From Octopus sinensis (Eukaryota), in assembly GCF_006345805.1 (NCBI RefSeq), contig NC_043009.1, forward strand, positions 60,078,001 to 60,142,000: a stretch of 64,000 bases of DNA, given 5' to 3'. The position numbers and the translations under genes were made by a program. Below the pieces are notes generated by a model. The model did not search any database. It was not told where the DNA came from and saw only the letters and a program-made list of their open reading frames with translations. This document shows positions 2,653 through 39,777 of the stretch, in pieces; positions within the stretch are counted from its first letter, which is position 1; each line of letters starts with the position of its first letter.

Positions 2653-2900
2653 TCTGTTTATCTCTCTCTGTCTCTCTGTCTCTCTCTCATACACACACAC
2701 ACACACACACACAACGAGCTGCCCCATATAAGTAAGAACCGCCTTTAGTCGAACAAATCGACCTCAGGACTTATTCTTTGTAAGCCTAGTGCTTATTTTA
2801 TAGGTCTCTTTTGCCGAACCGCTAAGTTACGAGGACGTAAGCACACGAACATCGGTTGTCAAGCGATGGGGGTGGGAAACACAGACATACAAACGCACAC
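2370..2900 (-). mobile_element. Two partial SINE family B 3' halves
   Basis: accgcctt...tttgccgaaccgctaagttacg...aacatcggttgtcaagcgatg blocks at about 2390-2550 and 2738-2890, separated by microsatellite. Confidence 0.7.
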
Positions 2901-2948
2901 ACACACACGCACACACATACATGCACACACACACATACACATATATAT

Positions 2949-3456
2949 AATAGTATACATTTAAACATAAGAGAAACTACCTTTAACAGGTAATTTTATA
3001 CGCTAGAAGAAGCAGTCAAAACGACCAAAACCACATTTAAGAGCAATTTCCAAGGGAATGAAAAATAAAACTTTTACCTTGTTATTTTTGGTTTACGGTT
3101 ATACCTAGATTTCGAATTCTTTAGCAAATAAAATAATTTGCTGGGCGAAATTCTCATCAGTAACCGCGCCATAACATTAACATATAATTTAGAGACAAAT
3201 GACATGTGTCTCATCATTATATGTTATAATTTTTCAGATTCACCGCGCAAGTGCAGTTTCAGTCGGTAGTAAATGGAAAATGCCGAACTGATCTTCGAAA
3301 TGCTAAGATCATATACGTGAGATATATAGGGTAGCAAATATTTTTAGAAATTTCACTACCAGTGTCCTAGCATGTATAAAAAGTCAATAGACAACATATT
3401 CTCAATATAAAATAGTGTACATTTAAACATAAGAGAAACTACCTTTAACAGGTAAT
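2949..3456 (-). mobile_element. Terminally redundant ORF-less unit (462-bp period) carrying a hammerhead; retrozyme-like or non-autonomous Penelope-like element
   Basis: 46-bp direct repeat aatagt(a/g)tacatttaaacataagagaaactacctttaacaggtaat at 2949-2994 and 3411-3456, microsatellite on both sides, hammerhead at 3096-3166. Confidence 0.75.
3096..3166 (-). ncRNA. Type I hammerhead ribozyme, apparently intact
   Basis: Minus strand: cggtta (stem I) CTGATGA gaattt-cgccc-agcaaat-tatttt-atttgct-aaa-gaattc (stem II) GAAA tctagg (self-complementary stem III) TA taaccg (stem I'). The core is canonical with a GUA cleavage triplet and a predicted cut between 3102 and 3101. Confidence 0.85.
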
Positions 3457-3599
3457 ACACACACACACACACACAACACACATATATATATATATACACA
3501 CACATATATATATATATATATAATACACACACATATATATATATATATATAATATATATACACACACACACACATATATATATACATATATATATTATA

Positions 3600-3677
<78 letters not shown>

Positions 3678-3808
3678 CGACGGGCTTCTTCCAGTTTCCA
3701 TCTATCAAATTCTCTCACAAGACTTTGGTCAGCTCGAGTCTATAGAAGACACCTACCCAACGTGCCACCTACCCAAGCTTCTTACCACACGCCTACACCT
3801 GTGCCTAT
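3678..3808 (-). mobile_element. SINE family B 5' fragment
   Basis: cgacgggcttcttccagtttcc...cttaccacacgcctacacctgtgcc matches the family B head/body with an internal deletion. Confidence 0.65.
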
Positions 3809-5945: not shown

Positions 5946-6329
5946 GGCGCAGGAGCGGCTGTGTGGCAAGTAGCTTGCTTACCAACCACAAGGTTCCAGG
6001 TTCATTCCCATTGCGTGGCACCATAGGCGGGTGTCTTCTACTGTAGCCTCGGGTCGACCAAAGCCTTGTGAGTGGATTTGGTAGCCGGAAACTGAAAGAA
6101 GCCCGTCGTATATAATGTATGTGTGTGTCTGTCTTTGTCTCCCCAACATCGCTTGACAACCGATGCTGGTGTGTTTACGTCCCCGTAACTTAGCGGTTCG
6201 GCGAAAGAGACCGATAGAATAAGTACCAGGCTTCCAAAGAATAAGTCCTGGGGTCGATGTGCTCGACTAAAGGCAGTGCTCCAGCATGGCCGCAGTCAAA
6301 TGACTGAAACAAGTAAAAGAGTAAAGAGT
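5946..6329 (+). mobile_element. SINE family B, full length
   Basis: tRNA-like head (tggcaagtagc... ggttcattccc), CORE-like segment (gcaccttgggcaagtgtcttc in other copies), internal TA/TG microsatellite, tail tgactgaaacaagtaaaagagtaaagag. Confidence 0.9.
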
Positions 6330-6915: not shown

Positions 6916-7327
6916 ACTCTTTTTCTCTTTTTACTTGTTTCAGTCATTTGACTGCGGCCATGCTGGAGCACCGCCTTTAGTCGAGCAAATCGACCCCGGG
7001 ACTTATTCTTTGTAAGCCCAGTACTTATTCTATCGGTCTCTTTTGCCGAACCGCTAAGTGACGGGGACGTAAACACACCAGCATCGGTTGTCAAGCAATG
7101 CTAGGGGAACAAACACAGACACACAAACATATTCACACACACTTATATATATATACATACATATATACGACAGGCTTCTTTCAGTTTCCGTCTACCAAAT
7201 CCACTCACAAGGCATTGGTCGGCCCGGGGCTATAGCAGAAGACACTTGCCCAAGATTCCACGCAGTGGGACTGAACCCGGAACCATGTGGTTGGTTAGCA
7301 AGCTACTTACCAAACAGCCACTCCTGC
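6916..7327 (-). mobile_element. SINE family B, full length, inverted relative to 5946-6329
   Basis: Reverse complement aligns end to end with 5946-6329. Confidence 0.9.
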
Positions 7328-7558: not shown

Positions 7559-7972
7559 GGCGGCGAGCTGGCAGAATCGTTAGCACGCCGGGCGAAATGC
7601 TTAGCGGTATTTCGTCTGCCGCTGCGTTCTGAGTTCAAATTCCGCCGAGGTCGACTTTGCCTTTCATCCTTTCAGGGTCGATAAATTAAGTACCAGTTAC
7701 GCACTGGGGTCGATGTAATCGACTTAATACCTATGTCTGTCCTTGTTTGTCCCCTCTGCGTTTAGCCCCTTGTGGGTAATAAAGAAATAGGTCTTTCGTC
7801 TGCCGTTACGTTCTGAGTTCAAATTCCGCCGAATTCGACTTTGCTTTCATCCTTTCGGGGTCGATTAAATAAGTACCAGTTACGCGCTTTGGTCGATGTA
7901 ATCGACTTCATCTGTTTGTCTGTCCTTGTCTGTCCCCTCTATGTTTAGCCCCTTGTTAGCAATAAAGAAATA
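7559..7972 (+). mobile_element. SINE family A dimer
   Basis: Head ggcggcgagctggcagaatcgttagcacgccggg; junction aaagaaata|ggtctttcgtc at 7789/7790; second unit is 183 bp. Confidence 0.9.
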
Positions 7973-17303: not shown

Positions 17304-17921
17304 GGCGGCGAGCTGGCAGAACCGTTAGCACGCCGAGCGAAATGCGTAGCCGTATTTCGTCTGTCACTACCTTCTGAGTTCAAATTCCGCCGAGGTCGAC
17401 TTTGCCTTTCATCCTTTCGATAAATTAAGTACCAGTTACGCACTGGGGTCGATGTAATCGACTTAATCCGTTTGTCTGTCCTTGTTTGTCCCCTCTGTGT
17501 TTATCCCCTTGTGGGTAGTAAAGAAACAGAAATAAGTATTTCGTCTGTCTTTACGTTCTGAGTTCAAATTCCGCCGAGGTCAACTCTACCTTTTATCCTT
17601 TCGGGGTCGATTAAATAAGTACCAGTTACGCACTGGGGTCGATATAATCGTCTTAATCCGTTTGCCCTCTGTGTGTTTAGCCCCTTATGGGTAGTAAAGA
17701 AATAGGTATTTCGTCTGCCGTTACGTTCTGAGTTCAAATTCCGCCGAACCGACTTTGCCTGTCATCCTTTCAGGGGTCGATAAATTAAGTACCAGTTGCG
17801 TACTGGAGTCGATCTAATCGACTGGCCCCATTCCACAAAATTTCTGAACTTGTGCCCAGAGTAGAAAAGAATATATTTCCTATATTTCCTATATAATTTT
17901 TGTTTCTTTCCTGATAGTCTG
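17304..17921 (+). mobile_element. SINE family A trimer with extended 3' flank
   Basis: Head unit plus two headless units starting gtatttcgtctg (~17536, ~17705); the last unit has the short tail plus a 64-bp block shared with 13066-13129. Confidence 0.88.
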
Positions 17922-26299: not shown

Positions 26300-27900
26300 A
26301 GTTTTATAGATTGGGGTACGTGTGACATTTATATTCATTGCTCCATTTCCTGTTCTGTGGGTGTTAGCTGTGAGAGACGATGTCACTCAAAAGCTGTTTA
26401 GTCTCACCTTATGTTATCTCCTTTCTTCACACTGTTTAATTGAAACTAACGGATGATGGCAAAGGCACAAGGTCGATTCGGAAGTTAGTGATGATTAATA
26501 TTGTTGTGTCGGGTATTCATTAGCAACCTTTTCGAACACTCATATTATCAAGTCAGGAAGGATTTCTTTCAGCTCATATAATCGCTCTTTAGTTGATGTC
26601 AACAATGAAATTCACCTTAAATATAATCCGTGTTGAAGTGTCGGATTTCTTCAGGTGTCCAAGGTTGGAACAAGCACCGTTGCTGTAAACACATTATGAG
26701 ATGTCAGTTTATTGAATTCAGATATCTCTGACTTCCTTTTCAACCGAATTCTGCTGAATTATTCCGTTGTCAATTCAGCTTTTCTCACAATACAAACATA
26801 TGCAATATTCCCATAAATTTCGAAATGTTAATAACACTCGTTCGTAGAGTTAGAATAGATAGATGGGTTATTCATATCCATATTCTTTGTCTACTCAACA
26901 AATTTTTTTGTCGATTGATTGCCAAATATGAACACTTATCTTGATCAAACGCTGCGGGAGGCTATTGCAAGCAGCTCTATCTCATGACGTCATGAACATT
27001 ACCCCCAAAAAGCTTCAGGTCATCGACACAATAAAAGATGTGGGTGACGTTATTTTACCTTTATTTTGTAGACCCTACAATAAAACCTTGGCATTTCCTC
27101 AGCTGTGCTGATAAGTAGTTCGCTGCCGAGGTGAACGGCATTACTGACAAGTGGTAATCTAATTATGTTTCTACCTATAGAAATTACACCAGTTCTTAGT
27201 TATACTTACGTGGACAGATAATCTTTTAATAGTATCGAAAACAGGAAATGGAAACTTGCCAGAGCGTAGGGCCTCTAGTATTCAAAAGTGAAGGACAACG
27301 TTACACGTCTTCTAACCAATCTGTCAGTAGATTTTGGTGATACTGCTTCGCCCCTTTAAGAACAACTCGGCACACACTCCTTTCTTTTGTCCTGCCTGCT
27401 TAGCAATCATCATATATGTTTCTTTGTGATCTCAGAGAAATGCATTCAAACATCCGGTGTTCAGTTTATTCATAACATTTAAGTATATTCTGAGATTGCA
27501 TCTTAATATCGTATGTATTTCTTAGTGCTTGGGGACATCGAGTCAGCATTCCATATGTTTTTGAAATGGTTGACAAGATCTTTCCCGTAAAACGTGGCCT
27601 TTTTACCGATAACCGCCAACAGATCTCATTCACAACTGTCAAGAGCGTTTCACAAGTATAATTATATTTGTTAGCAGAGACATGCGCACAGTACTCCCTT
27701 ATTAGCTCATTTAACCATACTGCATTGTATTTGTGCTTCTTATTTACATTCCAGATTCCTTACCCACTCCTCACAAAATCTAGATTATCTTGAGAATGTA
27801 GATTTATAACTTGAATGGTGTGATCTTCCCATGCTTCGATACACATCTCGTGGATTTAAGGAAAATGTGCGGTTGATAGGCCAACGTTCTTGTCATTTCA
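26300..27900 (-). pseudogene. Decayed R4/Dong-clade reverse transcriptase
   Basis: Minus strand VTHIFYCVDDLKLFG (27048-27004, cf. ISHLLYMDDLKLY), then AFDQDKCSYL (~26950-26922, cf. FGxDKC), then IRLKRKSEISEFNKLTSHNVFTATVLVPTL (~26750-26660, cf. RxxKIxxSELxxxNKxxAxNxFAxPVL), in the correct order. Confidence 0.7.
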
Positions 27901-28255
27901 TTAATAACAAAGTTTTTGATTTTCAGGTCATTATCCGTGCTTGAAGGCAACTATTACTTACCTTATGAGTGTCTCTCGAATGCGGTTTCCGTACATTATA
28001 GGTAATCTATCATAAATTTCGTAATTAGTCCTTCATAAATTCATTATTCATTTTGCATAATATACTGACAGTATCCAATTTCCGATGTTTTTCCGTAGTC
28101 TGGTTGCGTGTTATTCTTACCAGCGATCACTTTCAATCCAATCTTTGGTGAACAATGATTATAATACGATACAGTAAAACGTCCAATGTCCGAAATCTGG
28201 GAGATTTCAATTTGGGAAAGGTGTTCTTTCATAACTTTATCGATTGCGGATAACA

Positions 28256-28484
28256 TTAACCCTTTAGCATTTAAACCGGCCATATCCGGCCATAAGTATT
28301 CTGCCTGTTTTATGGTCAAACTGGCCAGATCTGGTCTCTCACACCTACCCTACAATGTCATTTTAAAAATTAACAGCTTCCTCATCAAAATCTTACAGCT
28401 ATAAGATGATGCATGATTAGTTCAAAACAATGTGGATAAAAAAGCATTAGTTTTGGCAGAATAATGCAAACACTAAAGAGTTAA
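28256..28484. mobile_element. piggyBac-like MITE with TTAA TSD
   Basis: TTAA-ccctttagcatt ... aacactaaagag-TTAA: imperfect TIRs beginning CCC, 221 bp between the TTAA sites. Confidence 0.75.
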
Positions 28485-39677: not shown

Positions 39678-39777
39678 NNNNNNNNNNNNNNNNNNNNNNN
39701 NNNNNNNNNNNNNNNNNNNNNNNNNNNNNNNNNNNNNNNNNNNNNNNNNNNNNNNNNNNNNNNNNNNNNNNNNNNNN
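39678..39777. other. Assembly gap (100 N)
   Basis: Run of n. Confidence 0.99.

Follow-up and report, generated by a model that had tools for sequence, protein, structure and literature searches.

A many-copy octopus repeat with a predicted type I hammerhead ribozyme, probably a non-LTR retrozyme

The window analysed here, a stretch of 64,000 nucleotides (64 kb) of Octopus sinensis DNA, holds a short insert belonging to a family that is probably a non-LTR retrozyme, non-autonomous and pasted into TA-rich microsatellite by a Penelope-like reverse transcriptase (RT)/endonuclease. This hammerhead-bearing family is a many-copy, dispersed genomic repeat, and its 462-nt unit closes on itself head-to-tail. 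The original prediction of a retrozyme-like, Penelope-related non-coding element is supported by the anatomy of the unit, its closure, its copy number and its (TA)n target. The features of the insert and of its surroundings are collected in Table 1.

Table 1. Features of the inserted element and of the SINE that surrounds it (positions in the 64-kb window).
Feature	Position	Strand	Basis
Inserted element, 1.1 periods of a 462-nt non-coding unit	2949..3456	-	Repeat and frame comparison
3' copy of the 46-bp terminal redundancy, element sequence	2949..2994	-	Other copies cross it, 3436 to 2974
5' copy of the 46-bp redundancy, starting with a 7-bp hairpin (3456-3450 with 3444-3438)	3411..3456	-	Comparison and predicted fold
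Predicted type I hammerhead with extended helix I; stem I proper 3167-3161 with 3101-3095, 7 pairs	3080..3176	-	Descriptor and predicted folds
Catalytic core box CUGAUGA	3154..3160	-	Sequence
Long stem II: 6-bp base, internal loop, 7-bp inner helix, 6-nt loop	3114..3153	-	Predicted folds
Core box GAAA (3113-3110), 8-nt self-complementary stem III (3110-3103), GUA triplet	3102..3113	-	Sequence and fold
Stable hairpin directly upstream of the ribozyme, 11 + 6 pairs, P 0.98	3178..3226	-	Predicted fold
Inferred 3' end of most family copies, with a TA tract at 3322-3329; not terminal in the window copy	3322..3350	-	Loose ends and depth step
Host SINE, 3' half	2735..2894	-	86% to 6280-6122 and 6967-7128
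Host SINE, 5' half (head), 32-nt deletion	3672..3808	-	Comparison with other SINE copies
Left part of the SINE-internal (CA)n/(TA)n microsatellite, target site	2895..2948		Sequence
Right part of the same SINE microsatellite as 2895-2948	3457..3677		Sequence

The 508-base insert is the sole copy of the 462-nt unit within the window. Comparison within the window confirms that its two ends form the direct repeat with one mismatch that had been described (45 of 46 bases identical, 462 bases start to start); with its edges widened, this repeat reaches 52 bases with 2 mismatches (2943-2994 / 3405-3456). The left (3') boundary is fuzzy over 2943-2953, because both the element and its target are TA-rich. 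The unit is short, AT-rich and non-coding, without LTR, and contains a single type I hammerhead motif. It is indeed devoid of any coding ORF, as first proposed, the longest stop-to-stop frame inside it being 49 aa. A scan over 2700-3800 gave no tRNA, and the protein atlas queried with two frames returned no usable match. In the same way, no RT or GIY-YIG domain was matched by Pfam in any of 33 frames tested (picked from 136 filtered window frames plus two inside the unit).

The insert lies in a microsatellite, as already recognized, with (CA)n/(TA)n on both flanks. The sequences 2735-2894 and 3672-3768 match the two halves of another SINE copy (6280-6122 and 6114-6015). Since these halves are only 7 nt apart in that copy (6015-6280), the unit was inserted into the microsatellite of the SINE, which we take to be an octopus family. 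The one protein matched by a frame from this other copy is named from Argonauta hians (E 6e-9), and this speaks for an octopod host; a literature search with the SINE motif found no paper. Target-site duplication is not resolvable in microsatellite sequence. Both a (TA)n/(CA)n insertion site and partial-tandem ends are present, as for Penelope-like elements.

Some other features of the window can be mentioned. Compared with three other copies, the head of the host SINE, which is on the same strand as the ribozyme, has lost by its 32-nt deletion a GGTTC-containing segment, presumably the B box. Another abundant dispersed repeat carries short tandems of a 170-184-bp unit (404-772, 7606-7972, 17352-17823 and about 20 related pieces). 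On the minus strand of 27469-28349, two frames of some 100 aa, which have no Pfam or atlas support, resemble what we take to be decayed LINE reverse-transcriptase pieces. An assembly gap of 100 bases occupies 39678-39777.

All the sequence features of a type I hammerhead are present on the minus strand of the unit, i.e., CUGANGA, GAAA, an NUH triplet, stems I and II and an open stem I, and the cut is predicted to fall between 3102 and 3101. The intact core, stems I and II and the palindromic stem III thus agree with the minus-strand type I hammerhead originally proposed, as a predicted ribozyme. The base of stem II pairs 3153-3148 with 3114-3119 (6 pairs). Two further proposals, an extension of helix I (to 3176/3080) and an inner helix of stem II (3142-3136 with 3123-3129), both appear in the predicted folds.

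Several controls speak against a chance motif. A strict hammerhead descriptor gave 1 match in the window versus 1 in total over 100 block-shuffled windows. As a control, 60 loci with a generic core were taken from unrelated collections (10 viral and 50 metagenome loci, without similarity to the unit and without type I fold); 6 of them failed a stricter pattern and were left unscored, and none of the 54 scored matches has both stems with at least 4 pairs, the unit having 7 and 6. A family-like hammerhead pattern had 0 matches in the metagenome contigs scanned, and the repeat motif 0 in the prokaryote genomes scanned. The Rfam hammerhead models, which had been proposed as a check, matched neither at the gathering score nor at E up to 10, and hammerhead identification therefore rests on the descriptor. 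This missing match may be due to the long stem II. Among the metagenome loci, L018, L040, L046 and L052 have a full hammerhead core, three of the four with a 5-7-bp stem II, without type I stem I; they are probably hammerheads of another topology, having no relation to the octopus element.

The fold z-scores are -2.6 for the ribozyme region and -4.2 for the whole unit (about -3.5 as a circle, and -3.8 for the plus strand). In the predicted monomer fold, stem III is absent and the core bases 3158-3156 pair with 3110-3108 (P about 0.9); forcing the active hammerhead fold in the model costs about 8 kcal/mol. Prediction on the dimer gives an 8-bp stem III duplex of -6.2 kcal/mol.

Public sequencing runs provide access to the rest of the family. 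The unit is partly present in 20 of 24 listed runs (12 studies, five organism labels), none containing more than 0.49 of its words. Contigs were aligned to the unit for four of the 24 runs, two DNA-like (X1 and X2) and two RNA-like by guess (X15 and X16). No run containing the unit is listed as RNA on record, which says nothing about expression. In X1 and X2, 2,909 and 2,952 contigs aligned, of which 296 and 257 are 99% alike or better, most being 90-99% alike. In the DNA-like runs, those contigs whose depth is 35-60 resemble single copies, whereas the summed depth is about 2,000 to 210,000; hundreds to thousands of copies is therefore a fair reading, summed contig depth not being equivalent to copy number.

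Backward joints of 463 nt (3436 to 2974 and variants) are present in all four runs. The shorter side of these joints covers 41-64 letters in X2 and 58 in X16, and 43-56 for the variant forms of X1, and the whole repeat is crossed. Other copies run from unit end to unit start through the 46-bp repeat, which is therefore element sequence. Joined to this copy and to the listed contigs, the joints imply that every point of the 462-nt unit is crossed by some genomic copy. As proof of tandem arrays they were rejected, since they show only read-through at that point, and no contig spanning two units occurs among the listed contigs of the four runs.

These data bear on a reading in which AT-rich DNA contains the hammerhead motif by chance, and the 46-bp repeat arose by duplication of the target site or of local sequence. 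Such a coincidence would fit the silence of Rfam and the one chance descriptor match per 100 shuffled windows. However, the motif belongs to a high-copy structured family and the repeat is absent from the host SINE; moreover, other copies carry the repeat once, internally, on which ground a target-site duplication was rejected. This explanation is thus extremely improbable.

The continuation of the contigs beyond the unit bears on another reading, namely that the insert would derive from an autonomous Penelope-like element as a partial tandem truncated on its 5' side (pLTR plus tail), with the known tail of 30-40 bp accounting for the 46 bp. Such an origin appears improbable, although the size of the redundancy is near that of the tail and the target is (TA)n. 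Genomic contigs close the unit at 462 nt without coding sequence, only 2-3% of the material aligned in X1 and X2 continues into unlike sequence, and the Pfam search of the window frames gave nothing. The 24 best-supported loose ends shown, out of 677 rows, are diverged versions of the unit, notably with an alternative stem I at 3160, or (TA)n at 3322; none is an ORF-like branch, but such a branch could hide among the other 653 rows. The steep depth gradient described below, of the 5'-truncation type, would also suit a pLTR. So would the location of the hammerhead near the 3' end, the distance from cut to end being 153 nt here versus 30-153 nt in 22 Hydra-clade rows. This range is no sharp test since it covers 22 of 26 rows, Hydra-1_cRog, an antisense Penelope-13_HM copy, Penelope-18_HMa and Penelope-2_NV (about 355 nt by hand) being omitted. 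The inferred usual end of the family lies about 215-242 nt from the cut.

This usual end, which differs from that of the window copy, is suggested by the depth of the contigs along the unit. Depth peaks over 3343-3437, then declines through 3001-3076, 3115-3152 and 3153-3266 to 3267-3323. In a scan of all possible ends (23 of 30 bins; 0 of 500 shuffles did as well, a control that ignores autocorrelation), the best-fit minus-sense 3' end is at 3335-3350, with a Spearman coefficient of -0.88 in X1 and -0.83 in X2 versus only -0.11 for an end at 3411; the best plus-sense end reaches -0.55. Furthermore, loose ends in (TA)n cluster at 3322 (30 contigs in X1 and 23 in X2). The slope and these ends suggest a 5'-truncation gradient produced by target-primed reverse transcription from 3322-3350. 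The step at 3322 could come instead from an unstable internal TA tract, where an ATAT insertion is seen in 2 contigs per DNA-like run. Position 2949 was rejected as the fixed 3' end of the family on the depth gradient.

The window copy is likely to be circularly permuted relative to most copies, and the head-to-tail joints together with the depth gradient likely bear out the permutation that had been anticipated. If so, it would comprise 135 nt of the end of one unit followed by a unit about 89 nt short. The left flank is similar to the part of the element that lies immediately inside the right repeat, and both inferred 3' ends lie on TA tracts of the element, which suggests that the RNA could pair with the nicked target.

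The window copy is also aged and decayed, with at least 15 sites at which it departs from the majority base of the family. The element had been described as apparently intact, which holds for its complete hammerhead core; with at least 15 such differences, the copy itself is not pristine. Among the 40 of 120 difference rows shown, 15 alleles reach at least 70% of the depth in both DNA-like runs. Introduced together, they bring the predicted circular fold from -104.1 to -123.0 kcal/mol, a value reached by none of 100 matched random sets (mean -100.2). One by one, 7 of these alleles have a stabilising effect, 3 a destabilising one and 5 none. The fold of the plus strand also becomes more stable (-91.2 to -100.7, 0 of 100 random sets), so that this test shows self-complementarity rather than strand. 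As the majority alleles deepen the fold of the whole unit, self-pairing is a property of the family, from which the window copy has drifted. With the majority alleles, the unit is predicted to fold into a branched rod built from nested long-range helices, and the ribozyme lies at an end of this rod.

By analogy with coral, mussel and axolotl retrozymes, which accumulate as circles (PMC7229834), circles are favoured for the octopus family, and that it forms them is judged slightly more probable than the contrary. In the RNA-like runs, junction contigs among the listed joints represent 11% and 5% of local depth, versus 0.6% and 0.9% in the DNA-like runs; this larger share is a weak hint of circles, because assembly differs with depth. 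The depth profile of X16 tracks the DNA profile (rho 0.92), as expected of background transcription or DNA. The predicted cut site is crossed by contigs of the RNA-like runs, as would be the case with DNA and uncut transcripts as well as with circles. One X15 contig (338 nt, window 3002-3197) has a depth of 58.5 versus 2-13 for the other X15 pieces listed; its changes at 3150 and 3117 keep that stem II pair and its stem I is largely different. This diverged variant, which dominates X15, may be an expressed source copy. A>G and T>C places were not in excess in the RNA-like over the DNA-like runs. Octopus-type animals edit their RNA very heavily from A to I, and a highly self-paired, abundant RNA would be relevant in such hosts.

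The 1.1-mer had been read as the trace of a circular RNA or of a partial tandem pLTR; taken by itself, it does not point to a circle. The Penelope-like protein Poseidon from Anolis starts internally on unprocessed, uncleaved RNA, hammerhead mutants have no effect on insertion in vitro and no RNA-seq reads end at the cut (PMC11167929); a circle is therefore not required. The same non-autonomous element could thus spread without circles, by linear read-through of arrays and internal priming, with a ribozyme that rarely or never cuts and tandems that come from insertion into the TA tract of the element itself. This alternative, which disputes the template step only, is the less probable one but has to be taken seriously. 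It is also in keeping with the TA tract present at the inferred unit junction and with the RNA-like contigs crossing the cut site, which fit uncut RNA as well as circles. Against it, all three metazoan retrozymes examined by northern blot gave abundant circles (PMC7229834), the whole unit is held closed in the predicted rod over the cut site as well as over the junction, and the junction contigs weigh, weakly, in the same direction.

A retrozyme copied by way of circles could operate as follows. Source loci with two or more units would be transcribed on the minus strand, and the hammerheads, aided by stem III pairing in the dimer, would excise 462-nt monomers that a host ligase would close into circles. 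A Penelope-like protein would then nick (TA)n DNA and prime reverse transcription at an internal site of the RNA, in most cases near 3322-3350 and for the window copy at the TA tract 3405-3410. Synthesis would cross an uncut or re-ligated ribozyme and proceed 46 nt beyond a full period, hence the terminal redundancy. As the ribozyme is kept in the middle of the copy, the template would have been uncut, re-ligated or jumped at the cut, i.e., a circle or a concatemer. With a single hammerhead, the locus alone could not release unit-length RNA, and the window copy would be a dead end for monomer release, drifting since. The dimers of Xenopus retrozymes, of which 1 of 9 tested cleaved (10.64898/2026.07.22.740005), count against the cleavage step.

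Octopus possesses (TA)n-targeting Hydra and Naiad elements, the Hydra elements having a 3' hammerhead (PMC8557442). An autonomous partner was not found: Hydra-1_Obim was rejected as parent, its ribozyme being different, six short motifs had no match in the supplement of that article, and no Penelope-like ORF was found in the 64-kb window.

For the return of retrozymes into DNA there is so far only a model. The full scenario, in which octopuses carry a circle-forming retrozyme family whose insertions record the points of entry and exit of RT on a 462-nt RNA circle, is rather unlikely on present evidence. If it were true, permuted, TA-primed copies longer than one unit would offer a genomic test of the circle-template model versus internal initiation on linear RNA. 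Given well-assembled genomes, the 5'-truncated and permuted copies of such a large family would allow these points to be mapped, and this is the best reason for follow-up.

The class of non-LTR retrozymes was described in 2020 and includes a mollusc representative in Mytilus (PMC7229834). That circles could be copied over more than one unit was proposed in 2014 (PMC4209133), and dispersed retrozyme monomers have already been described (10.64898/2026.07.22.740005). No cephalopod retrozyme is reported in the literature searched; the family may be listed in Repbase/Dfam, in one file of PMC4209133 or in the supplements of the preprint and of PMC7229834, all outside the scope of that search. The word ribozyme is absent from the available main text of the O. 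vulgaris repeat annotation (PMC13282606), as is "cephalopod" from the available text of a review (PMC7761336). The octopus family is likely to be a new case, for cephalopods, of a kind known in corals, mussels and amphibians, and would extend non-LTR retrozymes to this group.

The octopus family shares many traits with the metazoan non-LTR retrozymes (PMC7229834): a non-coding, AT-rich unit measuring a few hundred bases, a single type I hammerhead per unit, a stem III that is short and palindromic, a high degree of self-pairing, variants numbering in the thousands and head-to-tail arrangement. Its majority-allele rod, a prediction, resembles their published circles. However, its 462 nt are just above their 150-450 bp, and its stem II is long and interrupted whereas theirs has 4 bp with loop-loop contacts. 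The octopus locus has one ribozyme, and its likeness to these retrozymes concerns sequence and predicted fold. No cephalopod appears in the available main text of that article.

The preprint that treats retrozymes as non-autonomous Penelope-like elements (10.64898/2026.07.22.740005) describes dispersed single-unit "monomers" comparable to this locus, with a size range (51-972 bp) that covers 462. Its sample, as given in the available text, comprises 31 vertebrates, 3 insects and 1 coral, and no mollusc. Elements called "active" there have two consecutive hammerhead units, whereas the octopus locus has one and would be a "monomer"; moreover, in contrast to that study, no parent pLTR was found for the octopus unit.

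As in the pLTRs of Hydra, Neptune and Penelope/Poseidon elements (PMC4209133, PMC8557442, PMC11167929), the octopus unit has a type I hammerhead with a palindromic stem III near the 3' end. In the same way, it recalls canonical Penelope-like elements by its partial tandem, its TA-microsatellite target, the lack of resolvable target duplication and ribozyme stems that vary among copies. It differs from them by the absence of an RT or GIY-YIG ORF, by a hammerhead that is not minimal, and by a tandem period of 462 nt versus 2-4 kb.
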